DNA of 52,113 nucleotides from a virus: IMG/VR virus record IMGVR_UViG_3300014349_000035, positions 1-52,113 of that record; one strand, given 5' to 3'. Positions 1,371 to 49,832 of this stretch are shown in pieces; position 1 is the first letter of the stretch; each line of letters begins with the position of its first letter. The position numbers were made by a program, and so were the translations under genes. Below the pieces are notes generated by a model. It did no database searches. It saw nothing but the letters and a program-made list of their open reading frames with translations, and was not told where the DNA came from.

Positions 1371-2398
1371 CCGACACCCGAGCCAGTGACCTGACCATGA
1401 CCGACAACGACCGAGGCCGCGTTCCCATGATCGAGATCGAGAAAATCTCCACCGCCGGGCGCCTGCGCCAAGCCTCGCCGCGTCAGGTCGAAGCCATCAA
1501 GGCCAGCATCGCCGAGGTCGGGCTGCTCAACCCCATCACCGTCTGCGAGGAGGGCGAAGGTTACGTCCTCGTCGCCGGGCTGCACCGTCTGGAAGCCTGC
1601 CGCGCGCTCGGCTGGACCGGCATCGCCGCCGTCGTCGTGGATCTGAACGAGCAGCGCCGCATCATCGCCGAGTGCGACGAGAACCTGTGCGGCCCGACCT
1701 TGACCGCCAGCGAGCGAGCCGAGTTCACCCGGCGCCGCAAGGAGGCCTACGAGGCGCTTCACCCGGAGACGCGGCACGGCGGCGACAGGCGCGGCGATCA
1801 AGTCGCCAAGTTGGCGACTTGCTCCGAGCCCCAGCGTTTCACCGCCGACACCGCCGCCGCGACTGGCCAGTCCGAGCGGGTCGTGCAACGCGATGCCGAA
1901 CGCGGCGAAAAGGTCTGCGACGCCGCCCTCGCGCTGATCCGTGGAACCCGGCTCGACACCGGCCGGTATCTGGACAGCATCAAGAACCTGCCCGCCGAGG
2001 CCCAAGTCGAGCGCGTTCAGGCCGACCTCGCCGCCGAACCGGCCGCGCCAGCCCCGGCGCCTGAGCCCGTCGCCCCCGTCGACCCTGAGCGCCGCAAGCT
2101 GGCCAAGCTGACCCCCGAGGCCATGATTGACGAGATCATCGGCCTGCGCGCGGACCTCAACGACGAGAAGGCGAAGGCCATGCTCCTGCGCCGGGAGCGC
2201 GACGATCTCGCCACCAGACTTGCCGAGGCCCTCGCCGGAGACCAGGGCAAGACCATCGGCTCCCTGCAAGCCCAGCTCCGCGCCGCCAAGTTCGCCCGCG
2301 ACGAAGCCCTCGCGGCCACGAAGCGCATGGAGCACCGGCTCAAGAAGGCCGAGGCCCGCGTCAAGGAACTCGAGAACATGGAGGTCGTGATCGCATGA
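1367..2398 (+). CDS. ParB-like N-terminal (nuclease/CTPase fold) domain protein with coiled-coil C-terminus
   Basis: IEIEKIS ... RQVEAIKASIAEVGLLNPITV ... YVLVAGLHRLEACRALGW matches the ParB/Srx N-domain pattern. The C-terminal half is Ala/Glu/Lys-rich helical sequence. Confidence 0.8.
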   Translation: MTDTRASDLTMTDNDRGRVPMIEIEKISTAGRLRQASPRQVEAIKASIAEVGLLNPITVCEEGEGYVLVAGLHRLEACRALGWTGIAAVVVDLNEQRRIIAECDENLCGPTLTASERAEFTRRRKEAYEALHPETRHGGDRRGDQVAKLATCSEPQRFTADTAAATGQSERVVQRDAERGEKVCDAALALIRGTRLDTGRYLDSIKNLPAEAQVERVQADLAAEPAAPAPAPEPVAPVDPERRKLAKLTPEAMIDEIIGLRADLNDEKAKAMLLRRERDDLATRLAEALAGDQGKTIGSLQAQLRAAKFARDEALAATKRMEHRLKKAEARVKELENMEVVIA

Positions 2399-2646
2399 GC
2401 CTCCTCGCCCGCATCGAGGCCAACGGCGGCGCGGTGATCCGCGACGAATGGCGCTTCAGCCTGCGCCGGGGCCGTCTGTCGACCGACGCTCTGGCGTGGC
2501 TGCGCGCTCGCTGGCCGGACGCCTGCCGCGAGGCGTGGCCGCTCTACGACGACTTCGAGGAGCGCGCCGCGATCATGGAGTTCGAGGCGAACATGCCGCG
2601 CGCCGACGCCGAGCGCGCCGCATATCAGGAGGTCGCCGGATGCTGA
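2395..2646 (+). CDS. hypothetical protein
   Basis: 83-aa ORF, ATGA-coupled to ParB-like gene, overlaps the helicase start by 7 nt. Confidence 0.5.
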   Translation: MSLLARIEANGGAVIRDEWRFSLRRGRLSTDALAWLRARWPDACREAWPLYDDFEERAAIMEFEANMPRADAERAAYQEVAGC

Positions 2647-5162
2647 CCTTCGCCGAGCCCAAGGAAATCCGCCTTCGCGACTACCAAGCCGACGCGATCG
2701 ACGCGCTGCGCCAGAAGATCAGGGCCGGAAGCCGTCGCCTGATCCTTTGCGCCGGCACCGGGGCAGGCAAGACGCTGACATCGGCGTCCCTGCTGCGCGA
2801 GGCCGACCGCAAGGGCTCGTTCGCCCTGTTCATCGTCGACCGCGTGGCCCTGGTCGAGCAGACCAGCGAGGTTTTCAGCGAATACGGCATCCGCCACGGC
2901 GTCATTCAGGGCATCCACAAGCGGTGGGCGCCGCGCGAGAACGTGCAGGTCTGCTCGGCGCAGACGCTGGCCCGGCGCGGTCTCCTGCGCGAGCCCGACC
3001 TGATCGTCGTTGACGAGGCCCATTGCTTCTACAAGGCGACCCTCGACCTCATGGAACGCTACCCGCGCGCCGTGAAGATCGGGCTCACGGCCACCCCGTT
3101 CACGAAGGGCATGGGCCTGCACTGGGATGACATGGTGAACGTCATCCCGACCCGCCGCCTGATCGACGAGGGCTATCTGGTCGAGCCGAAGATCTACGTC
3201 GCCAAGAGCCCGGGCGACGAGGAGTTCACCCGCAACAGCTTCGGCGAGTTCAGCGACGAAAGCGCCGCGTCCGCCGGGATCAAAATCGTCGGCGACGTGG
3301 TGCAGGAGTGGATCGCCAAGACGCACGAGCACTTCGGCGGGCCGGTGAAGACCATCGTGTTCAGCCCGACCGTGGAGCATGGCCGCGAGCTGTGCGCCGC
3401 ATTCGCCGCGGCGGGCTACAATTTCCAGCAGATCAGCTACCTGGACCGTGACGACGACGAGCGCCTCGCCAAGATCGGCGAGTTTCGGCGCCCCGACAGC
3501 ATGATCCACGGTCTGGTCTCGTGCGGCGTGCTCACCAAGGGGTTCGACGTCCCCGACGTTCGCTGCATCGCCGAGGGAAGCCTCGTTCTTACGGACAAAG
3601 GCCTCGTGCCAATTGAAAGTGTTACCCTTGGACACAGGTTGTGGGACGGTATAGAATTCGTTGAACATCAAGGAGTTGTGTTCAAGGGATATCGCGATGT
3701 CATCGAATACGCAGGGCTCACCGCAACGCCCGACCACGAAGTCCACACAGCGCAAGGCTGGCGGACCCTTGGGGATTGCGCCGCCGAACAAGTCGGCATC
3801 ACACAGACCGGATTTGGTCGGCGGCCTGTTCGGTCGGATGCAGGTTACTTCGCCAGAGGTAGTCTGGAGAAAGCGGGGGCGGTGGGACCACGCTCACGTC
3901 CGCTGCCGCTGCACTGGCTGTGGCCGCGAGTTTGTGCGCGACTTGGCCAAACTGCAGGCCGATCCGCCCATTCAAGGGTGTCGGCAATGCTACCTGAACG
4001 CCGCTGCGGAGGCGCGCGCGGAACGGGCGCCGGAATGGCTGGTGCGGCGCGCGAAGGGCATGAAGGCGCGTTGCGACAACCCCTCTCACGTCGCCTTCCC
4101 GGACTACGGAGCGCGTGGGATCGAGTTTCGGTTTTCCTCGGCTCGAGCCTGCGCGGAATGGGTGCAGGCCAACCTCGGCTTGCCGTCGCAGGACCGGAAC
4201 ATTCAGTTGGACCGCATCAACAACGACGGTCACTACGAGCCCGGCAATCTGCGTTGGGCGTCCAAGGCGCTCAACTGCAACAACACGCGCCGTGGTGGGT
4301 GGGTGGCCAAGATGCACCGCTTCAGGATGGAGCATCCCGAGGTGCACTACGCCGACAAGACGCTCCGAAACCTCTTCGCGGCGGGCCTGACCTTCAAGCA
4401 GGTGGAGGAGAGATTCTACCAGCCGTCGGACAAGCCAAAAGGCCGGTATGGGACATTCTCCAAGCCGGACCCCGCAATCGCTTCACTTGCGAAGGACTCC
4501 TAGTTCACAACTGCGGAGTTTCCTGCAAGCCCTACCGCAAGAGCCTGTCCAGCCACATGCAGGAGATCGGGCGCGTGATGCGGCCCATCCCGGGTGAGCA
4601 GAAGACCGCGCTCTGGCTTGACCACAGCGGTAACATCGAACGCTTCGCCGTCGACATGTTCGACGTCTGGGAGAACGGCGCGGGCGAACTGGACAAGGCC
4701 GAGAAGCGCGACAGCACCCCGCGCGAGCGAAGCCAGCAGGTCCGCGAGAAGGTGGTCTGTCCCGAGTGCGCCGGCGCCCTGCGCGGCAACACCTGCATGG
4801 CCTGTGGCTGGGAACGCCCGCCGAGGTCCAACATCCACGCTGTCGAGGGCGAGCTTCGCGAGTTCGATCCGGCCGCGCTCGGCATGACGCCCCGCGCCGG
4901 GCTGCGGGCCGAGTGCCTCAAGGATCCCCGGGCCGTCTACAACGCCTGCGTCTACTACGCGATCGCCAACTGCCGCGACGGCGACTGCGACAAGTCCCGC
5001 AAGCGCGCGTTCGCGATCTGGTGCGGCATCTACCCCGGCGTGAAGGCGCGTCCCGGCTGGTATGGGATGCGACCGACCGCCCCGAGCGCCGACGCGCTGG
5101 CCCTGATCGAGCGGGAGGTCGCCCGCTTCCGCAAGCACAGCCGTATGCGGAGGGCCGCGTGA
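2640..5162 (+). CDS. SF2 (DEAH-type) DNA helicase precursor containing an intein
   Basis: ATG at 2640 preceded by AGGAGG. Motif I CAGTGAGKT, motif II VVDEAH, motif III LTATP, motif VI QEIGRVMR, C-terminal Cys4 ribbon CPECAG..CMACG. Interrupted at 3564-4511. Confidence 0.9.
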   Translation: MLTFAEPKEIRLRDYQADAIDALRQKIRAGSRRLILCAGTGAGKTLTSASLLREADRKGSFALFIVDRVALVEQTSEVFSEYGIRHGVIQGIHKRWAPRENVQVCSAQTLARRGLLREPDLIVVDEAHCFYKATLDLMERYPRAVKIGLTATPFTKGMGLHWDDMVNVIPTRRLIDEGYLVEPKIYVAKSPGDEEFTRNSFGEFSDESAASAGIKIVGDVVQEWIAKTHEHFGGPVKTIVFSPTVEHGRELCAAFAAAGYNFQQISYLDRDDDERLAKIGEFRRPDSMIHGLVSCGVLTKGFDVPDVRCIAEGSLVLTDKGLVPIESVTLGHRLWDGIEFVEHQGVVFKGYRDVIEYAGLTATPDHEVHTAQGWRTLGDCAAEQVGITQTGFGRRPVRSDAGYFARGSLEKAGAVGPRSRPLPLHWLWPRVCARLGQTAGRSAHSRVSAMLPERRCGGARGTGAGMAGAAREGHEGALRQPLSRRLPGLRSAWDRVSVFLGSSLRGMGAGQPRLAVAGPEHSVGPHQQRRSLRARQSALGVQGAQLQQHAPWWVGGQDAPLQDGASRGALRRQDAPKPLRGGPDLQAGGGEILPAVGQAKRPVWDILQAGPRNRFTCEGLLVHNCGVSCKPYRKSLSSHMQEIGRVMRPIPGEQKTALWLDHSGNIERFAVDMFDVWENGAGELDKAEKRDSTPRERSQQVREKVVCPECAGALRGNTCMACGWERPPRSNIHAVEGELREFDPAALGMTPRAGLRAECLKDPRAVYNACVYYAIANCRDGDCDKSRKRAFAIWCGIYPGVKARPGWYGMRPTAPSADALALIEREVARFRKHSRMRRAA
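3564..4511 (+). mobile_element. intein (316 codons) inserted between helicase motifs V and VI
   Basis: Block A CIAEGSLVLTDKG. Block B LTATPDHEVHT. Blocks F/G VWDILQAGPRNRFTCEGLLVHN, followed by Cys+1 at 4512. Length is a multiple of 3. The first ~150 nt have A/T-ending codons, unlike the flanks. Confidence 0.85.
3838..4503 (+). CDS. HNH-type homing-endonuclease-like protein, nested inside the intein in the +1 frame
   Basis: 221 aa from the ATG at 3838; the ORF is open from 3661. CRCTGCG..CRQC Cys cluster, WLVRRAKGMKARCDNPSHVAFPDYGARGIEF, LDRINNDGHYEPGNLRWASKALNCNN (HNH-like). Third-codon positions are G/C-rich in this frame, not in the intein frame. Confidence 0.6.
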   Translation: MQVTSPEVVWRKRGRWDHAHVRCRCTGCGREFVRDLAKLQADPPIQGCRQCYLNAAAEARAERAPEWLVRRAKGMKARCDNPSHVAFPDYGARGIEFRFSSARACAEWVQANLGLPSQDRNIQLDRINNDGHYEPGNLRWASKALNCNNTRRGGWVAKMHRFRMEHPEVHYADKTLRNLFAAGLTFKQVEERFYQPSDKPKGRYGTFSKPDPAIASLAKDS

Positions 5163-6082
5163 CCGCCGACACCCTCGCCGACGCCCTGCGCGAAGCCTGC
5201 GCCGCCGTGGGCATCGAGCCCCCGAAGCGCCGCCTCGTGCCGGGCCAGTGGGTGCGCACCGACACGCACGGCCGCAACGGCAAGGACGATGCCGCCGTGC
5301 TGATCTTCGACGACGGCAGGGGCGGCATCGCCTGGAACCATCAGACCGGCCGCAACCAGAGGTTCACGATGACGGCCGCCGGCGAGCTTCGCCGCGACCC
5401 CGAGGCCGAGCGCCGCGCCCGCCAGCGGGACGCCGAGCGGCTGGCCCAGCAGCGCGAGGTCGAGCGCATCTGCGCCGAGATCGTGCGCGGCTGCGACACC
5501 GGCAAGCATCCCTACCTCGAGCGCAAGGGCTTCCCCGACCAGCTCGGCCTGATCTGCGAGGATCCGACCATCCACTTCCCGTCCACGCGGTTCGGCGATG
5601 CGCTGGCGAAGGCGCTTCCGGGCGAGGGTCCGTTCCTCGTGATCCCGGGTCGGGTTGGCCAGACCATCACCACGGTCCAGTTCATCACCGCTGACGGGGC
5701 CAAGAAGAACATTCTCCGCGGCCACATGACCGGCGCCTCGCACAGGATCGCCACAGGGGCGCAGACGTGGGTTTGCGAGGGCATCGCCACCGCCATGAGC
5801 GTGAGGGCCGCCCTGCGCCTTCTGGGGGCCTCTGCGACGGTCTTGTGCGCCTTCAGCGCCTCCAACGTCGAGAAGGTCGCTACGGCCATCCCCGGCGCGC
5901 GCATCGCGGCCGATCACGATGCCCCGAACGAACACCTGGAGGGCAAGGGCGCCGGCGAGTTCTACGCCCGCCGCTCGGGCCGCAAGTGGGTGATGCCTCC
6001 GGGTATCGGCGACTTCAACGACTATTACCAGGCCGAGGGCCTCCGGGCCGTGGCGCTGCTGCTGAGGGAGGCGCTGGGATGA
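5159..6082 (+). CDS. toprim-domain DNA primase-like protein
   Basis: GTG at 5159 overlaps the helicase stop (GTGA). HPYLERKGF motif, then WVCEGIATAMS ... IAADHD (toprim-like E ... DxD). 307 aa. Confidence 0.75.
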   Translation: MTADTLADALREACAAVGIEPPKRRLVPGQWVRTDTHGRNGKDDAAVLIFDDGRGGIAWNHQTGRNQRFTMTAAGELRRDPEAERRARQRDAERLAQQREVERICAEIVRGCDTGKHPYLERKGFPDQLGLICEDPTIHFPSTRFGDALAKALPGEGPFLVIPGRVGQTITTVQFITADGAKKNILRGHMTGASHRIATGAQTWVCEGIATAMSVRAALRLLGASATVLCAFSASNVEKVATAIPGARIAADHDAPNEHLEGKGAGEFYARRSGRKWVMPPGIGDFNDYYQAEGLRAVALLLREALG

Positions 6083-40478: not shown

Positions 40479-40519
40479 CTAGGTTGCTCCCTGCTGATGG
40501 GTTGGTTATACACCAATTC

Positions 40520-40705
40520 ATGAGCGACGCAACAGGTGTTATACAAAAAAGACGCGGGCGACCGACGACGGGTCACAAGCTCGTAGCCCTCCGGTTCACG
40601 CCTGACGCGCTGGCCAAGATCGACGCTTGGGCGGCTGAAAACGAAATCCCCGACAACCGCTCAGAAGCCATCCGCCGCCTGGTAGAGCTAGGGCTGGGGA
40701 GGTAG
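40520..40705 (+). CDS. ribbon-helix-helix regulator, paralogue of 22974..23192
   Basis: 61 aa. KRRGRPTTG, then LVALRFTPDALAKIDAWAAEN ... NRSEAIRRLVELGL. GTTATACA repeats at 40505 and 40538 bracket the start codon. Confidence 0.65.
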   Translation: MSDATGVIQKRRGRPTTGHKLVALRFTPDALAKIDAWAAENEIPDNRSEAIRRLVELGLGR

Positions 40706-41767
40706 GGCCTTTCTCCGCTTCGCCACGCGCTCGACGACAGACCGCTTCCCCTCTGTTGACAGGTGCGCGTAGCGACGAGTTGTCGCCGTATCCCGGTGGC
40801 CAAGAACCTCGCCGATCTCGCCCAGCGTCGCGCCGTCCGCCAGAGCGTCAGAGGCAAACGAGTGCCGTAGATCGTGCAGGCGGAAGTTCTTGAGCTTGGC
40901 GCGCTCGCGGACCAAATCCCAAACCAGAGACGGGTAGCTGTTAAGTCCGACCAGCCATCCCCCTCGGGGCGATATGCTCTCGATGACCTGTCGCGCGTCG
41001 TCGGGGAAGACAATGGTCTTCGGACCCTCCTTGGCGGCGGTCTTGTGCTGTTCCAGGTAGAGAACGCCGTCGCGGTATTGAGACCGCTTGGCCCGCGCGA
41101 TTTCCGAGAACCGAGCCCCCGTCAGGTAGAGAACCCGCAGCAGCGCGACGGCGTGGGGATACTGCACCTCCGTCTCGTCGAAAGCTTCCTCCAGCCGCTC
41201 GCGCTCCTCTTTGGTCAGGTAGCGCCTGCGCTGTGTTTCGGGGTATTTCTTGACCGCCTCAAACGGGTATTCCCCGAACTTCCACATGGCGGAGACAAGA
41301 GCCTGGAGCCGGTTAAAGGCAATCGGCCGGTCGGACATCTTGCGCTTCAGGGCCAGCACGTCAGCCTTGCCGATCTCGGCGACGCGCTTTGATCCCCACT
41401 CAGGCTTGATGGTGTTCTCTACATGGCCCTTGTCGTGGCGAGCGGATCGCTTGTGGGCGTGTTCCTTGAGGTAGCGGTCGCACAGGCTGGAGACTGTTTC
41501 AGAGGCCCGTAGGGCGGCCCTGTCTCCTGATGGATCGCCGCCCCGCGCAATGATGCCGATCCACTCCCGCGCGATCTCTCTGGCTTGCGGAAGGGTCATG
41601 CCGGGGAAGTCGCCGATCTTCGGGCGCCTGCGCTGGCCGGTGCCTTTTACCCGATAGTAGAAGTAGAACGCGCGCCTGCCATCCCGAACCCGGAACTCAA
41701 GGCCCGTTACCTCGTCATCCTTGAGGAGGGAGCCTTCAGGGGCGTTCTTGAGTTGGGTGAGGTTCAT
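40688..41767 (-). CDS. int: tyrosine integrase (P4-like N-terminal arm domain)
   Basis: 359 aa from the ATG at 41767. GLEFRVRDGRRAFYFYYRVKG N-domain. C-terminal catalytic pattern LHDLRHSFAS ... LGHRDTATTRRYAH. Confidence 0.9.
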   Translation of the reverse strand: MNLTQLKNAPEGSLLKDDEVTGLEFRVRDGRRAFYFYYRVKGTGQRRRPKIGDFPGMTLPQAREIAREWIGIIARGGDPSGDRAALRASETVSSLCDRYLKEHAHKRSARHDKGHVENTIKPEWGSKRVAEIGKADVLALKRKMSDRPIAFNRLQALVSAMWKFGEYPFEAVKKYPETQRRRYLTKEERERLEEAFDETEVQYPHAVALLRVLYLTGARFSEIARAKRSQYRDGVLYLEQHKTAAKEGPKTIVFPDDARQVIESISPRGGWLVGLNSYPSLVWDLVRERAKLKNFRLHDLRHSFASDALADGATLGEIGEVLGHRDTATTRRYAHLSTEGKRSVVERVAKRRKALPPQP

Positions 41768-42210
41768 GTGTCCAGCTTGTGACGAAGCGCCATCGCATCC
41801 CACCACGCATTGTGCTGGACCGCACCCGGGAGCGTGGTCGGGTAGCAGTCGACGTTGTGTACCTCGAACGTCATGCGCGGATAGTCTGCCGAAGCCCAGC
41901 CGCCATCCGGCCCGGTTGAGAGCGCGGCGCAAAACCGACCGATATCGACGGGGCTGTCCGCAATGATGGCGGGGTCTTCGTCTTCACCGATGAAGCGCCG
42001 GATCGCGCCACCCACGCTGTAAACCGGCACGACCACAGCATTTGTTGCGTCATGCCTATTCATCAGCGGAAGAACGTTCCGAAGAACCCACGGGTCTTTG
42101 GCATTGGCGGTCGTCTGAACGTGAATACTCCGACCAGTTTCAGCCACCATGGCGAGGCTCAGAAGCGGGCCGTTGTGCCCATCAAACTCAGTGTCGAGGT
42201 AATATCGCAT
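41764..42210 (-). CDS. DEDDh 3'-5' exonuclease (DnaQ/RNase T-like)
   Basis: ATG at 42210, 5 nt after GGAGG. YYLDTEFDG (ExoI), ADSPVD, HNAWWDAMAL (ExoIII, H-x4-D). ATGA overlap with int. Confidence 0.8.
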   Translation of the reverse strand: MRYYLDTEFDGHNGPLLSLAMVAETGRSIHVQTTANAKDPWVLRNVLPLMNRHDATNAVVVPVYSVGGAIRRFIGEDEDPAIIADSPVDIGRFCAALSTGPDGGWASADYPRMTFEVHNVDCYPTTLPGAVQHNAWWDAMALRHKLDT

Positions 42211-42450
42211 GTCGCCTCCGGGTGTCATCCGGGCGCCAGAATGGCCCCAGACCCATCAATATGCGACGACTAGAACGAACGGTGAAACGTCTTATGCGCC
42301 AACGCTTGCCGACCTGAACAAACCAAGGCCGAAAAATGCGAGGCGAGACACGTGGTCACTGTTCTCAATCGCCGCTGTTCCTTGTATAGTAACCGATAGC
42401 GGAAGTCTGTCAATTACCTCGGATGCCGCTGGGGTGTCACAGGTCTGAAA

Positions 42451-42663
42451 TCAGGCCCCGATTGCCCCGGTGTTCGCGTGCATGTTTTCGCGCTCCCAGG
42501 CTTCCACGTCCGCCTCTGCATAGCGCACGCGGGCTTGCTGCGAAGCGCCGAACTTGATGAAGCGCGGACCCTTGCCGAGACAGCGCCACATGGCCAGCGT
42601 CGCCGGGGAGCATCCGAGACGCTCGCCAAGCTCAGCCGGGGTCAGGTGCTTTTGTCTGCTCAT
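42451..42663 (-). CDS. xis: excisionase / AlpA-family HTH protein
   Basis: 70 aa. LTPAELGERLGCSPATLAMWRCLGKGPRFIKFG ... VRYAEADVEAW. Confidence 0.8.
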   Translation of the reverse strand: MSRQKHLTPAELGERLGCSPATLAMWRCLGKGPRFIKFGASQQARVRYAEADVEAWERENMHANTGAIGA

Positions 42664-42697
42664 CGTTCGTCGGCCTGTGTGAAGCGGGCTGGCTTGG

Positions 42698-42931
42698 TCA
42701 TTTGGGTGAGGGGCCGTCGCGGTCGAGCACGGAAAGGGCGTGCGCAATCCCGGCAGCGTAGACTTCGAGGAGAACGTCGGGCTTCTGGGCGGCAAGGGCG
42801 CTCATGGCGACCCGCCGCGCGATACTCGACAGGCCGTGCCTCATCTGTACGTGAGCCCGCTTGGGGCCATCTCCGAGCGGTAGATCGGCCAGCAGCGCAA
42901 TGGGGCCGGTTTTGGACGCCGCGTCACTCAT
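42698..42931 (-). CDS. hypothetical protein
   Basis: 77 aa from the ATG at 42931. Confidence 0.45.
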   Translation of the reverse strand: MSDAASKTGPIALLADLPLGDGPKRAHVQMRHGLSSIARRVAMSALAAQKPDVLLEVYAAGIAHALSVLDRDGPSPK

Positions 42932-43190
42932 GACCTTCCTCCAGGCGCTTGAGAAGGGAGGAGGCGAGGGCTTCGACCTTGGGGTCGCCGGATATGTTCG
43001 GAAACTCTGACAGGCCAGTCCGCGCCTCTTCCAGCAATCCACGGAGGCGGGTGTTGTCGGCCTCCAGCCTTTCCTCTCTATCGAGTGCGGCAGAGAGGGC
43101 CTGAGCGGCTTGGTCGCACTCGTAGAAGCGACCAACGCTGTCCTGGCCGTGTAGTCTCAACCGCTCTACCAGTTCACGGGGGTTGGTCAT
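42924..43190 (-). CDS. hypothetical coiled-coil protein
   Basis: 88-aa ORF, coupled. Confidence 0.5.
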   Translation of the reverse strand: MTNPRELVERLRLHGQDSVGRFYECDQAAQALSAALDREERLEADNTRLRGLLEEARTGLSEFPNISGDPKVEALASSLLKRLEEGHE

Positions 43191-43558
43191 TTAGGGTTCC
43201 TCCCGGGGCCGTCCTCTTCGATCACTGGGGCGACGCCTTCGGCGCTGCCACGGGTGGACTCCTCGCACTCGTCCGCCCAGCGCTTCAGCTCGGCGGCGAA
43301 GTGTGATAGTCGCCGATGCAGATAATCGAGCGGCGACCATGCCCAGCAGGCCTCGCGGCGATTGATGCGGCGTATGAGGCAAACATCCTCGCCGTGGACC
43401 TCGCAGCCTCCGATGACCACCCACGCATCATCACTTGGCTCACACCACCAGATTTCCTCGACCAGACCTGAGCAAGTCGGCTCCGCGCTCAGTGCGGCAA
43501 GGGTCAGGGTTCCCTTGCCGGAGGTGGTCGGTTGATCGTGGTCCCGGGATGCAGTCAT
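43187..43558 (-). CDS. hypothetical protein
   Basis: 123 aa from the ATG at 43558. Cys/Trp-rich. Confidence 0.5.
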   Translation of the reverse strand: MTASRDHDQPTTSGKGTLTLAALSAEPTCSGLVEEIWWCEPSDDAWVVIGGCEVHGEDVCLIRRINRREACWAWSPLDYLHRRLSHFAAELKRWADECEESTRGSAEGVAPVIEEDGPGRNPK

Positions 43559-43821
43559 CACTCCCCCTCCTCGGTATTGGGTGCAGAGAGGGCTTGTCGG
43601 GCGATGCGAGCCATGTTGGCCGCTTCGTCGATGGGCCATTCACCGACGCCACGCGCCCAGTCCATTCCACACCCGGGGCGGTCGACGATCTCTTCCAAAG
43701 CCCCCCGCATCCGCTCTACGTCTGAGAGAAGGGAGCGGAGGTCTTGGGCCAAAACCGGCCCTGCGTAGAGCCTTCCGCCGGTAGTTAGAGCCTCCTCCAA
43801 CCTCTTGATATAGTCGCTCAC
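43558..43821 (-). CDS. hypothetical protein
   Basis: 87 aa. GTG start overlaps the upstream stop. Confidence 0.5.
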   Translation of the reverse strand: MSDYIKRLEEALTTGGRLYAGPVLAQDLRSLLSDVERMRGALEEIVDRPGCGMDWARGVGEWPIDEAANMARIARQALSAPNTEEGE

Positions 43822-44240
43822 GACTGCTCCTCCTGGTGTTCACGCTGACGAAGGGCAGAGAGGATGGCTTCGGCAAGCCGCTCAATCGGGCGCGGGCATT
43901 CTCCGATCTCGGCTCCGTCCATCGGTATATGATCGGCGAAGACGGTGTTGTCTGGCCCCATGTCCTGCGCGTGCGCCGGAAACGAAGCTATGAGCGTCTT
44001 CAGCCTCTCAAGTTCATCTGCCAGAGCGTCAGTCGCGGGAGAGGGCTGGGGAGCGCGGCGGTTCCATGCGGCGATGGCGGCCGACCGGGGAGCGATTTCT
44101 TCACCAGTCGCGCCGCACTCGTCGCAGATGACGGCGAAATCGCCGTCGCTCGGCTCCTGATCTGGGCGCTCGATGCCGTATTGCTGAACAACGAGCTTTT
44201 GGCCCCCGCAGAACGGGCACGGCTTGAGAGCGTCAGTCAT
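43818..44240 (-). CDS. lar: Lar-family restriction-alleviation-like protein with C-terminal extension
   Basis: ATG at 44240 after GGAGAAAG. KPCPFCGG ... VICDECGATG ... AAIAAWNRR is the Lar-family pattern. An extra ~75 aa follow. Confidence 0.65.
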   Translation of the reverse strand: MTDALKPCPFCGGQKLVVQQYGIERPDQEPSDGDFAVICDECGATGEEIAPRSAAIAAWNRRAPQPSPATDALADELERLKTLIASFPAHAQDMGPDNTVFADHIPMDGAEIGECPRPIERLAEAILSALRQREHQEEQS

Positions 44241-44306
44241 GTCTTTCTCCAATCCAGACCGGGCGGTTGATGTCCCGTTCCCTGAGCTTGCGAGCCTTGC
44301 GCAGCT

Positions 44307-44633
44307 TCACCGCTTACCCTCCCGGTATGCGTTGAGGGCGGCGCGGGCGGCGTCACGCTCGCGGAGAAGGTCAAGAATCCAGTCGTCGCGCTCCTTCAAG
44401 ATCTGCTTCCAGTATTCGCGAGCGCGGTAAGCCGCTTCGTCGCGCTCGGTTCTGAGCGTTGTGATTTCCTCGCGCATCCGCCGGACCTGCTCGGCGAGGG
44501 ACACGTCCCCGCCGTCCGGTGGGTCCATGAACTCGACGCCACCGATGGCGGCAGAGACAGCGCAGCACTCGGCGCACGGCTCTTTCAGCACGGCCACGCG
44601 CTCACGGCGGCGAACGTCAACGGCATGGGTCAT
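44307..44633 (-). CDS. hypothetical protein (Cys motif + coiled coil)
   Basis: 108 aa from the ATG at 44633. Confidence 0.5.
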   Translation of the reverse strand: MTHAVDVRRRERVAVLKEPCAECCAVSAAIGGVEFMDPPDGGDVSLAEQVRRMREEITTLRTERDEAAYRAREYWKQILKERDDWILDLLRERDAARAALNAYREGKR

Positions 44634-44887
44634 CACTCGCTCCTTCCGTGAAGCGGGCAGTCCTCGGTGATCCAGAAAGCGCCCTTCATGCCCCAGGCAC
44701 CCCAGCCGCGCGCGTTGTCGCCAATGGGGCAGGTGCATCCGCGCTCAACAGCGGCGTTAGAGCCGGGCGTGGGGTCGTCGTCGTCGTCGTTGTTCGGGTC
44801 AAACGGGTCGGGCCGCTTCCACCATTCGCGGTGGCGCCGGTCATCGTCAGCGTCGGCTTGATCGCTGGGGGTCCAATCGCGGGTCAT
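44633..44887 (-). CDS. hypothetical acidic/Cys-containing protein
   Basis: 84 aa from the ATG at 44887. DPNNDDDDDP, GCTCPIG ... DCPLHG. Confidence 0.5.
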   Translation of the reverse strand: MTRDWTPSDQADADDDRRHREWWKRPDPFDPNNDDDDDPTPGSNAAVERGCTCPIGDNARGWGAWGMKGAFWITEDCPLHGRSE

Positions 44888-45285
44888 GCTGCGTCCTCGA
44901 AATGCTCGACGGTCAGGCCAGAGCGGGCGCACCAGGCGAGGATGAAGGTGAGGAGGTCGGCGAACTCGGCCTTGGTCAGCTTCGACGAGCGGTAGCCCAT
45001 CGGGAAAAAGCCATCGCCTTCCAGCACCGGCATGATGGTGATTTCGCAGCCCCACGCCTGCATGAAGACCACCTTCCACAGCTCGGGCGTCATCTTCACG
45101 CCGTTGTGGGTCGGGCGCTGGCGCTGGATTTGCGCGAGCAGCCCCCAAAGGGCGCTGTTCTGCGGGTCAGACCGCTTGGCCTCGCGGAACTCGATCACCG
45201 TCCCGTGCGGCGCCGTCCTGCACCATTGGGCGGCGGTCTCGCGGTTGGCCGGACGGTCGAGGATGATGGGGCGGGAGCGGGTCAT
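44884..45285 (-). CDS. ninB: NinB/Orf-family recombination protein
   Basis: EFREAKRSDPQNSALWGLLAQI ... PELWKVVFMQAWG matches the NinB pattern. Confidence 0.8.
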   Translation of the reverse strand: MTRSRPIILDRPANRETAAQWCRTAPHGTVIEFREAKRSDPQNSALWGLLAQIQRQRPTHNGVKMTPELWKVVFMQAWGCEITIMPVLEGDGFFPMGYRSSKLTKAEFADLLTFILAWCARSGLTVEHFEDAA

Positions 45286-46001
45286 ACGGCCCGCCTTTCC
45301 TCGATCACCTCAAAGCCGGGGATCGTCCGGCGGCCTTGGCGGCAGTCGCGGTTGGCCAGCGACAGGAAGAACTCCTCGCAGGCGGCGCGGTCGGTCTGCC
45401 AGTAGTGGCGAGCGGCAGCCGTTCCATCGACCAGCCGGGGCGTCCAGTAGCTCCGCAGGCCGGTTCCCGTGGTCGCGGCTTTGTCGGCCTTGCTGGCCAC
45501 CTTCGCAGCCTTGTCAGCGTCGCGCAGGGCGGCCTCGGCAGCCTCGCGGGCGGCAAGGTCCGCCGATGCGGCGCGCATGGCCTCGGCGGCCTTAGCAGCG
45601 GCTTCCTCGGCCTCGCGGCGGGCCTTCTCCGCAGCCTCCCGGCGGATGCGCTCCTGTTCCTTGCGCCACGGTTCCAGCGCCCGCTTGCACGCCTCGGCGG
45701 CCAGCACGGTCATGCCGCGCACCGCCTTGGTGTCAGAGATCAGCGGGGCGTATTTCGCCTGCACCGCCGCCTTGCCTTCGTCGAAGGGCCGGTTCTCCTC
45801 CTTGCGGGCCTCGTCGGCGGCTTTCTCGGCCTGCCTGATCTGGTCTAGGAGGTCGGCCACGGCATCGGCTTGCCCTTTCGTGGTGATGGGCTCGCCGTCG
45901 AGGAAGTTGCGAGCCTCGGCGTAGAGGTCTTCGATGTGCGCCTTGATGGCGCCGAAGGTGTCGGGCGGGTTGTTGTGGCCCATCATGCCGTCAGCCATCA
46001 C
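45282..46001 (-). CDS. hypothetical protein, long Ala/Glu/Lys/Arg coiled coil
   Basis: 239-aa ORF, coupled to both neighbours. Confidence 0.6.
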   Translation of the reverse strand: MMADGMMGHNNPPDTFGAIKAHIEDLYAEARNFLDGEPITTKGQADAVADLLDQIRQAEKAADEARKEENRPFDEGKAAVQAKYAPLISDTKAVRGMTVLAAEACKRALEPWRKEQERIRREAAEKARREAEEAAAKAAEAMRAASADLAAREAAEAALRDADKAAKVASKADKAATTGTGLRSYWTPRLVDGTAAARHYWQTDRAACEEFFLSLANRDCRQGRRTIPGFEVIEERRAV

Positions 46002-46663
46002 GCGGCCTCCGAGAACGGGTCGGCTTCACCGTTCCCCGCGGGCGGCGCGAACCGGGTGGCCTCGTTCTTCATGGCGCGGACCACGCGGGCGTATTGCTCG
46101 TCGCTCATCACCTCGCGCCATTGGGCCTTGTTCTTCGCCCAGGTGGCCTTGAACTCGTCGCCGGACGTGCAGGCGATCAGGGCGCGAATGGCGAAGTCGG
46201 CGGGGTCGGGCGCGGCCTCCACGTTGGCCATGCTCTTGTCGTAGAGCGCGAGCCCGAACGGGTTGCCGAAAGTCATCAGCGCCCGCTTCATGGCGTCCGT
46301 CTCAGCCTCCTTCAGCGCGCTCTCGTGGGCTTGGTCCACGTCCTTGTCGATGCCGGAGCCGAAGCCGCAGCCCTCGCGGATGATGACCGTCTCCCCGGCC
46401 CGCACGGTGACGCGCACCCGGCAGGAGTAGCCGACGCGCCACTGGTCGTTGCCGTGCTTGTCCTTCCCAAGGCGCGGCTCGCCAAGTTGGCGCAGGTCCA
46501 CGGTCTCGCGGTCCCATGCGTCGAACCCGAAGATGCGGTTGGCCTCGGCGATGGCGTGCCATCCCTCGATATAGGACAGCTTGCGCCCGGCCTGTTCCCG
46601 CGTGGCGACGTGCGCCTTGTTCAGCGGGGCGGCCAGCTCCTTGGTCTGTTCAGGCGTGAACAT
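45998..46663 (-). CDS. Rad52/22-family single-strand annealing protein
   Basis: LSYIEGWHAIAEANRIFGFDAWDRETV ... KEAETDAMKRALMTFGNPFGLALYDK. Confidence 0.85.
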   Translation of the reverse strand: MFTPEQTKELAAPLNKAHVATREQAGRKLSYIEGWHAIAEANRIFGFDAWDRETVDLRQLGEPRLGKDKHGNDQWRVGYSCRVRVTVRAGETVIIREGCGFGSGIDKDVDQAHESALKEAETDAMKRALMTFGNPFGLALYDKSMANVEAAPDPADFAIRALIACTSGDEFKATWAKNKAQWREVMSDEQYARVVRAMKNEATRFAPPAGNGEADPFSEAA

Positions 46664-46889
46664 TGATATGCTCCAGGTGTTGTGCGATCCGCCGCTGGGT
46701 GGCGCGGTGCAGCGCGTCGCGGCGGGCTTGCTGGCAGGCGTTGGCCACGCCGGAACGGACGTTTAGCAGCGCGAACTCGGCGGCCCGGATGCGGGGCAGG
46801 TCGGCCTCGATCTCGCCCGGCTGTTCGCCAGCGAAGCGGACGAGATCGGCGACGGCGCGCTCCAGTGCGGTTACGGGATCGTTGGTCAC
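46650..46889 (-). CDS. hypothetical protein
   Basis: 79-aa ORF. Confidence 0.45.
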   Translation of the reverse strand: MTNDPVTALERAVADLVRFAGEQPGEIEADLPRIRAAEFALLNVRSGVANACQQARRDALHRATQRRIAQHLEHINVHA

Positions 46890-47083
46890 GCTGTCACCTG
46901 CGCGGACCAGACGCGGCGGCGCTTGCCGTCAGGGCTGATGCGTTCCACCACCACCTCGGGCGGGTAGTCGGGATGCTGAAGCCTGCGCCAGTGCCAGAGG
47001 GCGAGCTTCTTGGCCCGGTCCAGTGCGTCCACGGTGTCGATCACGACACGGGTGCGGGGGATAATGACGGCGTAGCGGGTCAT
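46886..47083 (-). CDS. hypothetical protein
   Basis: 65 aa from the ATG at 47083. Confidence 0.45.
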   Translation of the reverse strand: MTRYAVIIPRTRVVIDTVDALDRAKKLALWHWRRLQHPDYPPEVVVERISPDGKRRRVWSAQVTA

Positions 47084-47454
47084 TGGGCGGTGTCCTTTTG
47101 TTGTGACGCGCCGTCCTTGCGTGTGCTCACCCGAGCCCGGTTCCGGGGCTCCTCGCCAAGGCGGCCGTAGATTTGAAAGCCGAGGAACCATTGCGGTCCA
47201 TCACCGCCGCGCCCGGAAAGACCAACCCACCAGTGCATCGGGTAGCTGCCGAATTTGGTCGTCAGCGAGGTCTCAAAGGTGCGCCGCATATTGAAGCGGG
47301 CGGGGAAGCGGGCGATCACCCACGCGCCGGAGAAGACGGCGGCGGCCAGGCAGACGGTTATGATCACGCCCCAGCCGACGCTTCCGGCGATGGCGTTGGC
47401 TATGTCAGCCCAAGGAAAGTGTTCTTGGGCCGGGGACGGCGCGTCACCCATCAT
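47080..47454 (-). CDS. membrane protein
   Basis: 124 aa. TM helix GWGVIITVCLAAAVFSGAWVIA. Confidence 0.5.
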   Translation of the reverse strand: MMGDAPSPAQEHFPWADIANAIAGSVGWGVIITVCLAAAVFSGAWVIARFPARFNMRRTFETSLTTKFGSYPMHWWVGLSGRGGDGPQWFLGFQIYGRLGEEPRNRARVSTRKDGASQQKDTAQ

Positions 47455-47466
47455 TCAATCTCCATT

Positions 47467-47784
47467 TCAGGAAGCGCAGGCTCGCCACGCACGGGCGGCC
47501 TTGATTGCTGCTGTCAGTTCTTCGGCCATTGAGATCGCGCCGCAGGGACCACCGCCGGTCATCCGGGTTCGGGTCCATTCCTCAACCACCAGGGCGAGGA
47601 CGGCTTCGGCTTGCTCGATGGTCAGCCACAGGTGGCCGGTCGGGTAGGTGCGCCACATGACCTCGCCGGTCAGGTGCTCGAAAGAGGGTCGGGAGACGGC
47701 ATCGCCGCCTCCCTGCCGCACGAGGGGGCCACCCTTTGCCGCTTGCTGGGCGGCGTAGGGGTCGCGCGGGGTCTCGGGGGTCAT
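47467..47784 (-). CDS. hypothetical protein
   Basis: 105-aa ORF. Confidence 0.5.
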   Translation of the reverse strand: MTPETPRDPYAAQQAAKGGPLVRQGGGDAVSRPSFEHLTGEVMWRTYPTGHLWLTIEQAEAVLALVVEEWTRTRMTGGGPCGAISMAEELTAAIKAARAWRACAS

Positions 47785-48104
47785 TGGTCGCCTCCGGTCG
47801 CCTTGGCGATGGCGGCGAAAGCGCGCGCGTTCAAAGCGTGGTCAGCCGCAGACGATGAACATCCAATGGTGTGGTGCCAGCGTTGCTGAAGCTCCCTCAG
47901 CACATCCAGAAGCTCCGGCGCGGCGGCTATCAGGCGGGCGTTGGCGCGCTGTTCTTCAAGCCCTTCAAACTCGCTGACCGCATCCCAGTCTTTAGGGGCG
48001 TTTGGAAACACGGAGGCGATAAACTCATCGCCAGCCCACACAGGGCCGGTCATGCTGTGAGGGTCGTAGGACCAAGGCCCCGGCGTGTGCTTGCTCTCGC
48101 TCAT
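47781..48104 (-). CDS. hypothetical protein (SESKHTPGPW N-terminus), paralogue-like to 48294..48575
   Basis: 107 aa from the ATG at 48104 (ATGA-coupled). Ends ...AIAKATGGDQ. Confidence 0.55.
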   Translation of the reverse strand: MSESKHTPGPWSYDPHSMTGPVWAGDEFIASVFPNAPKDWDAVSEFEGLEEQRANARLIAAAPELLDVLRELQQRWHHTIGCSSSAADHALNARAFAAIAKATGGDQ

Positions 48105-48208
48105 TGGCTCAAACTCCAAATCCAGAAGCTCACCACCAGCGACAGGACAGAGACGACCAGTCCGCCGTTCAGGGCATTGCGGAGGAGGAAGGAGAGGGCG
48201 GGGTTCAT
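48101..48208 (-). CDS. 35-aa single-TM peptide candidate
   Basis: MNPALSFLLRNALNGGLVVSVLSLVVSFWIWSLSQ, with ATGA coupling at both ends. Confidence 0.35.
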   Translation of the reverse strand: MNPALSFLLRNALNGGLVVSVLSLVVSFWIWSLSQ

Positions 48209-48297
48209 TGACCCATGCTCACGACGTAGACAGCGACCAGCAGCCAGAAGGAGCCAGCAGCCAAGGTGATGATGGTGAGGCGGCGACGGGGGCTCAC
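48205..48297 (-). CDS. 30-aa single-TM peptide candidate
   Basis: (V)SPRRRLTIITLAAGSFWLLVAVYVVSMGQ. GTGA overlap with the upstream stop and ATGA overlap with the downstream start. Confidence 0.35.
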   Translation of the reverse strand: MSPRRRLTIITLAAGSFWLLVAVYVVSMGQ

Positions 48298-48575
48298 TGG
48301 CCAGTCGCCTTGGCAATGGCGGCGTCGATCTCCGCGACCCACTCCTCGTCAGAACCTTCGACCTCGCTCCAGCGAGAGTTCTTCAAGTCCAAGACCGTCT
48401 GACGAGCCGCGCGCAGCGCCTCGAGAAGCCCGGACCGCTGCTCAAGGACGCGCTTGATCGCCGCCCGATCCATCGCGGTCGGAAAGCCGCCACGTCCCCG
48501 CCGATTGTCGTACTGCGCGAGGAAATCCCGGACGGCCTCACCCCAGATGTCGGGAGTGTGCTTGCTCTCGCTCAC
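48294..48575 (-). CDS. hypothetical protein (SESKHTP N-terminus)
   Basis: 93 aa from the GTG at 48575 (GTGA coupling). Ends ...AIAKATGQ. Confidence 0.55.
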   Translation of the reverse strand: MSESKHTPDIWGEAVRDFLAQYDNRRGRGGFPTAMDRAAIKRVLEQRSGLLEALRAARQTVLDLKNSRWSEVEGSDEEWVAEIDAAIAKATGQ

Positions 48576-48826
48576 AGCGTCCCCCATTCGCGAACGGGGT
48601 TGACCGGCGCTTCAAGATCGGCAGCGCAGTCACAGCAGACGCGCTCGCCGTAGTCGTCCAGAAGGTCGAGGTCGAAGTCGTGGCGGCTGCTAAACCAGCG
48701 CTGGCACTCCTCGCACTGGAGCGCGTCGCTTTCCCGCGCCGCCTCGTCAAAGTCGGCCAGCGGGTAGTCGGTCAGGTAGTCGGCGATAAACGCCTGCGCT
48801 GCCGGGTCGGTCGGATCAAGCAACAT
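48572..48826 (-). CDS. hypothetical zinc-ribbon-like protein
   Basis: 84 aa. CEECQ ... CCDC. Confidence 0.55.
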   Translation of the reverse strand: MLLDPTDPAAQAFIADYLTDYPLADFDEAARESDALQCEECQRWFSSRHDFDLDLLDDYGERVCCDCAADLEAPVNPVREWGTL

Positions 48827-49061
48827 CGCCCGCCCCCATCATCTCGGCCACGCGCACCGCCGCCCACTCGGCAGCGTCGGCAACATCAAGGCTCATGCCC
48901 GCATCAAGGCAGGTGTCGAGAAGGATGTTGCTGGCGCGAATGCAGCGGTTCTCAGCGGCAAACCGTGCATCAAGGTCGGTAACGCCAAGCGTCGCCGCGC
49001 GGGCCACAACGTAGCCGTTGAGCGCGGTGGCCAGATGGTCGAGGGTGATTGATCGCTGCAT
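48816..49061 (-). CDS. hypothetical protein, first gene of the early-left operon
   Basis: 81-aa ORF just downstream of the operator-bearing region. Confidence 0.5.
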   Translation of the reverse strand: MQRSITLDHLATALNGYVVARAATLGVTDLDARFAAENRCIRASNILLDTCLDAGMSLDVADAAEWAAVRVAEMMGAGDVA

Positions 49062-49091
49062 GGTGTGTCCCCGTGTCTATGGGGAGCACTG

Positions 49092-49104
49092 TTGCATTTT
49101 GCAA
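49092..49104. promoter_or_regulatory. operator, 13-bp palindrome TTGCATTTTGCAA
   Basis: TTGCA-N3-TGCAA. One of three perfect copies flanking the repressor gene. Confidence 0.6.
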
Positions 49105-49136
49105 ACATACTATCAAGGGGGCGGGCGCAAAAAATA

Positions 49137-49149
49137 TTGCAGAATGCAA
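49137..49149. promoter_or_regulatory. operator, 13-bp palindrome TTGCAGAATGCAA
   Basis: Same TTGCA-N3-TGCAA architecture, 45 nt centre-to-centre from the first copy. Confidence 0.6.
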
Positions 49150-49202
49150 ACGCCTATTTCACAAGGGAATCGTCGGCGGTTTACCCAGACCGGGTAGCCG
49201 GG

Positions 49203-49511
49203 TCAGCTCGCTTTGAGGAGTGCTTCCAACACCAGGACGGCCTGCCTCTGCTGTTCCTTGGGGACGCGCGAGGCGATGCGCACTAGATCGGTGTCCAGAT
49301 CGTCGGGGTGATGGTCAAGGAGGAAGCCCGGCGTAGTATTGAGCGCAGGCGCTAGTCTGCGGAGCCACTTGGAAGACAAGCCGCGCTCGCCTGCCTCGAT
49401 TAGCGAAATCACAGAGGCGGTGGTTCCAACGGCAGTAGCAAGCTGCTCTTGCGTAAGGCGCCGGTGTTCGCGCCACGCCTTGAGGAAGTTCTTTTCAGCG
49501 TCCTTAGCCAT
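49203..49511 (-). CDS. CI-like repressor, XRE-family HTH, no peptidase domain
   Basis: 102 aa from the ATG at 49511. LTQEQLATAVGTTASVISLIEAGERG. Lies between operator clusters, divergent from a Cro-like gene. Confidence 0.75.
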   Translation of the reverse strand: MAKDAEKNFLKAWREHRRLTQEQLATAVGTTASVISLIEAGERGLSSKWLRRLAPALNTTPGFLLDHHPDDLDTDLVRIASRVPKEQQRQAVLVLEALLKAS

Positions 49512-49593
49512 ACCCTCATTTTGCGCTGAGGGCGGCGAGAAAGCGTTAGACAGGCTGCAAACATGCGCGCCGAAAATGGGCTTGCCTGCAATG

Positions 49594-49606
49594 TTGCATT
49601 CTGCAA
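49594..49606. promoter_or_regulatory. operator, 13-bp palindrome TTGCATTCTGCAA in the divergent repressor/cro region
   Basis: Third perfect TTGCA-N3-TGCAA. Extra TGCAA half-sites at 49556, 49587 and 49619. Confidence 0.6.
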
Positions 49607-49616
49607 ACATGCCGAC

Positions 49617-49832
49617 ATGCAAACTGCTTCGCCCATTGAGATCGCCGAGCGCCTGCGGGCCGCAGGGGTCAGCGCCAGTTATGCCAGCCAACTGTCACGC
49701 TCCGTTCGGAAGCCGTCGCAGCGGCTGGCTATCAAGCTCTATCGGGAAACCGGCGTGAAGCTGGGGCCGATTGCCAACGCGACTGACAGCGAGATTGACG
49801 CGCTCGAAAGCCTGCTCGGGAAGGTCGCTTGA
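49617..49832 (+). CDS. Cro-like small HTH protein
   Basis: 71 aa from the ATG at 49617. IEIAERLRAAGVSASYASQLSRSVRKPS. Divergent from the repressor. Confidence 0.55.
   Translation: MQTASPIEIAERLRAAGVSASYASQLSRSVRKPSQRLAIKLYRETGVKLGPIANATDSEIDALESLLGKVA

Follow-up and report, generated by a model that had tools for sequence, protein, structure and literature searches.

A phage helicase intein with a conserved HNH-like gene out of frame between its splicing lobes

We examined an in-frame insertion of 948 nt in a helicase gene carried by a viral DNA stretch of 52,113 nucleotides, IMG/VR record IMGVR_UViG_3300014349_000035 (positions 1 to 52,113; the whole stretch is referred to as the window). 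The insertion lies at positions 3564-4511 of the + strand and is probably a mobile composite of two overlapping genes, namely a class-1 intein read in the helicase frame (F0) and a separate gene for an HNH-like protein read in the +1 frame. Its anatomy, the use of two frames, the purifying selection specific to each frame, the avoidance of stop codons, the Hint fold and the layout common to the family are established by the results reported below. An earlier note on this DNA, made from the sequence alone, had taken all 316 codons of the insertion for intein protein. This reading held for the first ~88 and the last ~30 residues, while the centre was found to code for the HNH-like protein in the +1 frame.

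Insertion site in the helicase gene

The host gene (2640-5162, + strand) encodes the precursor of a superfamily 2 (SF2; ResIII/DEAD-like) DNA helicase, as indicated by Pfam and PHROG matches and by 69% amino acid identity to gp45 of Paracoccus phage Shpa. The sequences flanking the insertion matched Pfam ResIII (E=1.2e-23) and Helicase_C (E=5.4e-5), with the Helicase_C match ending at the insertion point, and the helicase was also assigned to phrog_16, DNA helicase (E=3.8e-61). The open reading frame (ORF) is open throughout 2448-5162 of the + strand; collinearity with Shpa gp45 indicates that the true start is probably ATG 2640 and not 2448. This ATG overlaps the end of an upstream ORF of 83 aa (2395-2646), as is the case for gp44 and gp45 of Shpa.

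Phage Shpa was the sole deposited relative at the DNA level, and it matched in two pieces. We found that its gp45 is collinear with the window helicase except for exactly the 316 codons: at the junction, Shpa reads GFDVPDCL followed directly by IGISCKPYRKS, and the window reads GFDVPDVR, then the 316 aa, then CGVSCKPYRKS. Since gp45 is uninterrupted at this site, excising the 948 nt restores a collinear helicase. The alignment to an intein-free homologue that the earlier note had proposed thus bore out two of its claims, that of a clean in-frame insertion of 316 codons in a phage SF2 helicase and that of an insertion point just upstream of helicase motif VI (QEIGRVMR; 4560-4583, + strand), which is located in the C-extein.

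The 316 codons of the insert are free of stops. They begin with CIAEGSLVLTDKGLVPIESV, contain LTATPDHEVHT and end with VWDILQAGPRNRFTCEGLLVHN, after which the helicase continues with CGVSCKPYRKSLSSHMQEIGRVMR. A contrast in composition, which had been noticed earlier in the codon usage, was also recovered in our measurements: GC content at the start of the insert is 0.52-0.55 (3525-3749) and ~0.70 around it, and GC content at third codon positions (GC3) in the helicase frame drops from 0.90-0.95 outside the insert to 0.47-0.62 within it.

Hint lobes of the intein

The intein comprises 316 codons of F0 (3564-4511, + strand), from Cys1 to a terminal His-Asn, and is followed by Cys+1 at 4512-4514. 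Two parts of it code for Hint lobes in F0: the N-lobe (3564-3827, + strand), with blocks A and B and residues C1, T55 and H58, and the C-lobe (4425-4511, + strand), with blocks F and G and residues D297, H315 and N316. Between them lies a central F0 spacer (aa 94-281; 3843-4406, + strand), which is an open read-through of the HNH-like gene. Hidden Markov models (HMMs) of the family matched the N-lobe at 3564-3812 (E=6e-40) and the C-lobe at 4416-4514 (E=3e-19). When 25 relatives were aligned, C1, T55, H58, D297 and N316 were invariant, and C317 (Cys+1) was nearly so, being replaced by Ser in some relatives.

The AlphaFold model of the F0 translation showed the same division. Its predicted local distance difference test score (pLDDT) was 96-98 for the beta-rich Hint N-lobe at aa 1-80 (88-98 at aa 1-90) and 96-97 for the Hint C-lobe at aa 288-317, and aa 94-281 scored 31-50 with practically no secondary structure. 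A Foldseek search of this model against PDB returned intein/Hint structures at all ranks from 1 to 42, with a probability of 1.00 for most of them and, for the best matches, a root-mean-square deviation of 2.2-3.5 Å over 80-110 columns. In addition, a family profile built from mini-inteins and the two lobes of the window matched solved DnaE inteins nearly full-length (7qil, E=2.2e-5; Npu DnaE, ~9e-4; and Spl DnaX, 0.017).

The relatives include plain mini-inteins of 109-158 aa, which are found in DNA polymerase A and in helicases. In the mini-intein relatives that have no HNH, the N-lobe ends in ...QTG, precisely at the point at which the HNH homology of the long forms begins, and the junction of the lobes is at the usual position of the endonuclease or of the split in split inteins. 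The insert is thus a class-1 intein with Hint lobes of only ~88 N-terminal and ~30 C-terminal residues, and the assignment of Cys1, T-x-x-H, His-Asn and Cys+1 in the earlier note agrees with the invariant or nearly invariant residues, the family profile and the Foldseek matches. Its catalytic residues are intact, the ratio of nonsynonymous to synonymous substitution (dN/dS) of the lobes is 0.15-0.26, and a replicative helicase is expected to be important, all of which suggests that the intein is active in splicing.

The nested gene and its protein

Between the lobes, the coding signal was found in another frame. At ~3780-4440, GC3 was 0.72-0.90 in the +1 frame vs 0.33-0.62 in the helicase frame, and because of this shift the R/A/G/P-rich middle of the 316-aa translation is to be read as an off-frame rendering of another gene. 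The +1 frame is open at 3661-4503, and its stop (TAG, 4501-4503) sits within the codons of block G (CTC-CTA-GTT). Counted from ATG 3697, the nested ORF (3697-4503, + strand) has 268 aa and is of the HNH-like homing-endonuclease type. It matched PHROG families annotated as HNH endonuclease (phrog_374, 1.4e-25; phrog_3377, 1.2e-19) and, weakly, phrog_1035 'endonuclease VII' (7e-7). The F0 centre of the insert had no PHROG match.

We detected 384 homologues of the +1 protein. Its AlphaFold2 model had a mean pLDDT of 85.5, with values >90 across most of aa 40-240, and disorder was limited to the first ~30 residues, the part that overlaps the coding of the Hint N-lobe. Four invariant cysteines in a CxxC...CxxC arrangement (C72, C75, C95 and C98; 3910-3990, + strand) probably form a zinc ribbon. 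Further on, the protein has a beta-beta-alpha core (IQLDRINNDGHYEPGNLRWASKALNCNN; 4201-4284, + strand) with an invariant D-R instead of the canonical D-H. In the model, this core consists of strands 169-173 and 185-189 and helix 190-196, in the unit IQLDR...NLRWA-SKALNCN, and the protein also has a helical region. Residues D172, R173, Y180 and N184 were invariant, N193 was invariant in one of two alignments, and a nearly invariant H179 is located in the beta-beta-alpha loop, six residues after D172-R173. Finally, 78 structure neighbours were found in BFVD at E<=1e-3. These were free-standing phage proteins, labelled as HNH (homing) endonuclease, AP2-domain or DNA-binding proteins. The +1 protein is presumably a nuclease with a role in homing, and both are suggested by the distribution of the family, which occupies numerous sites and hosts and whose close relatives include intein-free alleles.

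Selection in two frames and avoidance of stops

The DNA of nine relatives was found via the F0 translation, and the GC content of their inteins was 0.44-0.56. In these nine loci and the window, F0 had 0 stops in 308-321 codons, the +1 frame held a conserved ORF of 260-296 aa, and the +2 frame had 6-23 stops. The +1 ORF was kept also in the relatives of 44-50% GC, where the +2 frame has 13-23 stops.

A stop in F0 is possible only where a T-ending codon of the HNH-like gene precedes a codon that starts with AA, AG or GA. In the window, none of the 41 dangerous contexts uses NNT (6.6 expected), and the same was true of the ten loci together, with 0/41-55 contexts per locus using a T-ending codon (6.6-18.6 expected). 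The window has 0 F0 stops vs ~5.2 expected. Synonymous shuffles of the HNH ORF yielded 5-15 F0 stops across loci, and F0 stayed open in only 0.1% of the shuffles of the window and in 0/2000 for each of the nine relatives. Because the helicase needs a stop-free spacer, the synonymous codons of the HNH-like gene are restricted, with no T-ending codon before AA, AG or GA.

We estimated dN/dS with the Nei-Gojobori method on 116 distinct elements, and the constrained frame was found to switch along the element. For the N-lobe, dN/dS was 0.15 in F0 and 1.24 in F+1; for the centre, it was 2.15 in F0 and 0.08 in F+1; and for the C-lobe, it was 0.26 in F0 and 0.67 in F+1. The intein centre is a spacer constrained only to remain open.

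Family census and distribution

Since the first nine loci had been ascertained through an open F0, IMG/VR and GTDB genomes were searched with the HNH protein alone. From >554 confirmed matches in IMG/VR, 80 were kept, and together with 68 in GTDB genomes they made up 148 loci. Frames were assigned to these loci with HMMs, which replaced a regular expression that had missed 28 of them. The arrangement of N-lobe in F0, HNH in +1 and C-lobe in F0 was present in 117 of the 148 loci, all with zero F0 stops, and an HNH in frame with both lobes was present in none (0/148). The other loci were distant relatives with a free-standing HNH and without Hint lobes (24/148), elements cut by contig ends (4/148) and broken frames (3/148). 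The shift to the same +1 phase and the return to F0, again with zero F0 stops, were seen in 127/127 complete elements, which come from independent assemblies and from phage genomes that have been deposited. Stop avoidance, the HNH-only census and the frame-switching dN/dS together indicate that the layout is neither a sequencing artefact nor a product of chance. In particular, an F0 open by chance in GC-rich DNA was ruled out by the synonymous shuffling and the low-GC relatives, and sequencing frameshifts were ruled out by the constant phase across the family.

The element was found at several sites in DNA polymerase A, at >=4 sites in this helicase family and also in a third host. The contigs that carry it were assigned to Acidobacteriota, Bacillota, Actinomycetota, Pseudomonadota and other taxa. 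Two loci have the element at the exact helicase site of the window: L091, from a metagenome-assembled genome of Bryobacterales, and L162, a metagenome contig of 1,035 nt that shows 73% HNH identity and has 48 nt of flanking sequence ahead of the intein and 40 nt behind it. Contigs of ~0.9-1.1 kb, roughly the size of the element, carried many of the homologues found for the nested protein, and such contigs would fit breaks in the assembly graph at places where a single sample contains alleles both with and without the intein.

Among deposited phages, the Hint / +1 HNH / Hint arrangement was detected in the polymerases of Gardnerella phage vB_Gva_AB1 (nt 2251-3177) and APSE-2 (P45 DNA polymerase, nt 2206-3126), both of which are annotated as 'DNA polymerase' with neither the intein nor the nested gene. 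The polymerase intein of Salmonella phage vB_SenS-Ent3 (HG934470.1) has a related HNH-like ORF in the +2 frame, with the N-lobe at nt 2022-2222 (frame 2), the HNH-like part at 2270-2761 (frame 1) and the C-lobe at 2838-2921 (frame 2); it is annotated only as 'encoding splicing domains'. A tblastn search with the HNH core matched 150 Salmonella phage records, and Jersey-like phages may commonly have a hidden HNH-like gene that is missing from their annotation.

A few sequences departed from the common layout. Locus L052 (nt 2862-3805) has an indel inside the HNH and a C-lobe that is also out of frame with the N-lobe, and in protein P0023 the Hint frame continues into the HNH frame. Locus L128 (nt 2637-4180) contains a frame-broken copy and then a second mini-intein in the same gene, and L135 likewise departs from the common layout. 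Errors of assembly, copies in decay, or steps on the way to in-frame or split forms could account for these cases.

Candidate expression signals of the nested gene

Two candidate starts were identified for the nested gene. One is ATG 3697, which together with a candidate ribosome-binding site (AAGGGA, 3684-3689) is placed within the codons of the Hint N-lobe (3684-3699, + strand) and is also present in L162. The other is a TTG (3814-3816, + strand) at the L of the conserved P-D-L-V-G motif. We defined an upstream start as one that lies 25-50 codons before the P-[ED]-[LM]-V-G motif and has, 5-15 nt ahead of it, an element resembling GGAG/GAGG/AGGA, and such a start with a Shine-Dalgarno-like (SD-like) element was found in 90/118 relatives. 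The L/M codon of the motif was ATG, TTG or GTG in 84/118, and the Leu codons at the motif start were TTG (40), CTG (9), TTA (4) and CTT (1). Free-standing HNH relatives start 8-25 residues ahead of the motif; given these starts and the predicted disorder of the first ~30 residues, either codon would allow a functional protein. Internal initiation at ATG 3697 or TTG 3814 is what we infer from these features. At the other end, the HNH stop ends 8 nt before the last base of the intein in 75/118 loci, the window included.

A sigma-70-like site (TGGACA-17-TAGAAT; 3629-3657, + strand) was also found within the N-lobe, ~40 nt upstream of ATG 3697, with 10/12 matches (expectation from shuffles, 0.1). 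Among its codons is ATA, a rare one for Ile, and both promoter-like hexamers are kept in L162 and not in L091. We regard it as a speculative internal promoter and as a lead only. The A/T-ending codons at the start of the insert had been taken in the earlier note as a sign of horizontal origin. The contrast is real, but part of this stretch holds the candidate expression signals of the nested gene, and the presence of such signals may account in part for the A/T-ending codons.

Proposed mechanism and alternative explanations

In the mechanism that we propose, the precursor helicase would be translated straight through the element, with a disordered spacer of ~190 aa joining the Hint lobes. The two lobes would associate, and splicing would join ...GFDVPDVR and CGVSCKPY..., so that the helicase is restored immediately ahead of motif VI. 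The zinc-ribbon and HNH-like protein, which is of the free-standing phage homing-endonuclease type, would be made independently by internal initiation and would cut intein-free helicase alleles such as that of Shpa. The intein-less form of the site would read GGGTTCGACGTCCCCGACGTTCGC followed by TGCGGAGTTTCCTGCAAGCC, and recombinational repair of the cut allele would copy the whole element in.

Several observations weigh against this reading. With regard to the intein, no Pfam or NCBIfam Hint/intein model matched the window sequence at usable thresholds: Pfam Hint_2 matched weakly (E=0.074 on the spliced lobes; 6/14 family members matched, best 1.3e-4), and a single-sequence PDB search with the F0 insert gave only marginal RecA-intein matches (E=0.13). 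For this reason, the family profile and the structure were needed to identify the intein, and the search with Hint/intein profiles suggested in the earlier note gave nothing usable with curated models and a positive answer with the family profile (7qil, as above) and the structure match. With regard to the nested protein, the position of the canonical HNH catalytic His is occupied by an invariant Arg (D172-R173), Pfam and NCBIfam scans of the +1 ORF gave no usable match and none to a Pfam HNH model, a family profile found nothing relevant among PDB sequences, and Foldseek found no significant match to it in PDB. No start codon is universal for the nested ORF, the two candidates being present in 90/118 and 84/118 relatives, and the SD-like criterion is loose. 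Lastly, the retrieval of the first nine relatives via an open F0 was an ascertainment bias, which the HNH-based census removes.

The invariant Arg makes nuclease activity uncertain; thus, we use the term HNH-like and not canonical HNH, and the catalytic mechanism of the protein, if any, may differ from that of the textbook HNH. The same Arg would also suit a nested protein that is conserved without being a homing nuclease, for example a DNA-binding or maturase-like protein, in an element persisting mainly by vertical descent. The missing Pfam and PDB HNH matches, and the 'AP2 domain' or 'DNA-binding domain' labels of some BFVD neighbours, point in the same direction. We nevertheless consider this explanation unlikely, since the element is present at many different sites, spread over many phyla and over two or three host genes that are not related, with intein-free alleles in close relatives, which is the distribution expected of an actively homing element. 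Moreover, the matching PHROG families are annotated as HNH endonuclease, and H179 in the beta-beta-alpha loop is nearly invariant.

Programmed frameshifting, to +1 near 3800 and back near 4437 (CCAAAAGG), might operate instead of or besides internal initiation, and would agree with an HNH homology that starts exactly at the end of the N-lobe and with the A-run (CCA AAA GGC) at the C-junction of the helicase-type elements. However, the A-run is missing from the junction of the polymerase-type relatives, the N-junction shows no evident conserved slippery site, and two efficient shifts in series would be required. Start codons with SD-like elements are common upstream and the free-standing HNH relatives have their own starts, which makes frameshifting a very improbable route to the nested protein.

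We give even less weight to a canonical bifunctional or long-linker intein, in which all 316 F0 residues would be functional and the +1 ORF would be a chance open frame. F0 is indeed open throughout, and long off-frame ORFs are common in GC-rich DNA, but the explanation is refuted by the frame-specific selection. The F0 centre combines a dN/dS of 2.15 with a pLDDT of 31-50, against a dN/dS of 0.08, a pLDDT of 85.5 and a PHROG HNH match (1e-25) for the +1 ORF, which is kept in relatives of 44-50% GC with 13-23 +2 stops. Least probable of all is an in-frame HNH intein corrupted by two compensating frameshifts, whether sequencing errors or a decaying pseudogene: the frame breaks in L052 and P0023 show that indels do occur in assemblies, but the phase is the same in 127/127 complete elements, no fully in-frame version was seen, and synonymous codon choice actively avoids F0 stops.

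Comparison with known systems

The composite of intein and overlapping gene was compared with five kinds of known systems. Actinophage inteins described in 2025 carry same-strand out-of-frame endonuclease genes, presented there as rare and previously unreported. As in the window, a same-strand endonuclease gene is situated between the splicing blocks and is read in a frame differing from that of the intein and extein, and the host frame is open; the origin proposed in that report, a free-standing endonuclease gene invading an intein, is a further likeness. The actinophage endonuclease is endonuclease VII-like, with core residues 1-67, is read in frame 3 (+2), and is hosted by DNA polymerase, minor capsid, terminase and thymidylate synthase genes. 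In contrast, the window protein has a zinc ribbon and is HNH-like (PHROG 374), with core residues 169-196, is read in frame +1, and is hosted by the SF2 helicase of a high-GC phage, within a family of >=117 verified loci across phyla.

An out-of-frame endonuclease in the cyanobacterial dnaX intein was reportedly first proposed by Gorbalenya in 1998. That intein has now been described with an out-of-frame LAGLIDADG endonuclease (Phillips, DeSimone & Gogarten, bioRxiv 10.64898/2026.09.14.751524). It shares with the window an overlapping endonuclease ORF with a dN/dS that, over the overlap, is low in the endonuclease frame and raised in the extein frame, as well as the existence of mini-intein relatives and a proposed secondary invasion of a mini-intein. 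Unlike the window element, the dnaX case involves a LAGLIDADG protein, a '+2ORF' and a cellular dnaX host rather than phage replication genes.

The ShiLan 'hidden HNH' insertion in mycobacteriophage DNA methylases (Arsenault et al., Genes 2025, PMC11855218) is also an out-of-frame HNH ORF in an in-frame insertion without host-frame stops, with a start just inside the insertion and a stop within its last bases. It differs in having no Hint domain, in being thought to stay in the protein as a loop, and in having the HNH in the third frame, whereas complete Hint lobes flank the hidden ORF of the window. In the fractured genes, split inteins have a free-standing endonuclease gene between their halves (Dassa et al., NAR 2009, PMC2677866). 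There too, a free-standing-type endonuclease gene is placed at the N/C junction of the intein and has short coding overlaps with an intein part, but the host frame is broken up and the intein acts in trans. The host frame of the window is continuous, with 0 stops, so its intein is contiguous and not split. Finally, the Hint profile, the fold, the lobe sizes of ~88 + ~30 aa and the insertion point are those of mini-inteins (Npu/Ssp DnaE, Mtu RecA), from which the window element differs by an unstructured spacer of ~190 aa that is the off-frame read of another gene.

The window element is of the same kind as the reported out-of-frame inteins, from which it differs in the endonuclease family, the +1 phase, the host gene and the host clade. 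The family to which it belongs is also far larger, and more uniform, than what has been reported in those cases.

Implications

We lean, with some reserve, towards regarding the out-of-frame layout as a fixed, long-lived state of a large cross-phylum intein family and not as a rare, transient accident. On the same guarded reading, the family would comprise phage and prophage loci in the hundreds, located in SF2 helicases and in DNA polymerase A, among them APSE-2 and Gardnerella phage AB1. It would also comprise the Jersey-like Salmonella phages, where the phase is the other one and the polymerase intein is annotated with splicing domains alone. No in-frame member was seen. If it is true, selection favours the synthesis of the endonuclease uncoupled from that of the host protein, and current surveys, in which in-frame endonuclease domains are sought, systematically take such elements for inteins without an endonuclease. 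Annotation is affected too, as such inteins are labelled endonuclease-less (e.g. in Salmonella phage Ent3) and the nested gene is missed or called an unrelated hypothetical protein.

Mobile inteins are thought to have arisen when endonuclease genes invaded splicing-only mini-inteins. In the family described here, three states stand side by side, namely free-standing HNH-like genes, mini-inteins, and mini-inteins with an out-of-frame gene, and for this reason the invasion model can be tested with real sequences. The element is also a clean natural example of overlapping genes under very different constraints, in which the product of one frame has to fold and the other frame has only to be free of stops. 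For intein engineering, the tolerated disordered spacer of ~190 aa shows how much unstructured insert the lobes can bridge.

Genomic context

The helicase gene is followed by a DNA primase gene (5159-6082; phrog_2249, 5.4e-27), which overlaps the helicase stop by 4 nt. This helicase-primase arrangement matches that of gp45/gp46 in Shpa, and the mechanically called ORF 4766-6082 overstates the length of the primase. The window corresponds to a siphovirus-like phage or prophage with ParB, helicase, primase, terminase, portal, major head protein and tape measure genes. We found no tRNA genes in the window, and neither the Hint lobes nor the HNH were found a second time in it. The phage structural and replication modules have a GC content of 0.67-0.71, in contrast with 0.62-0.65 at 40500-51000, where there are few ORFs of high GC3 (none between 40262 and 44884); the latter region may be a different module or a prophage/host boundary.

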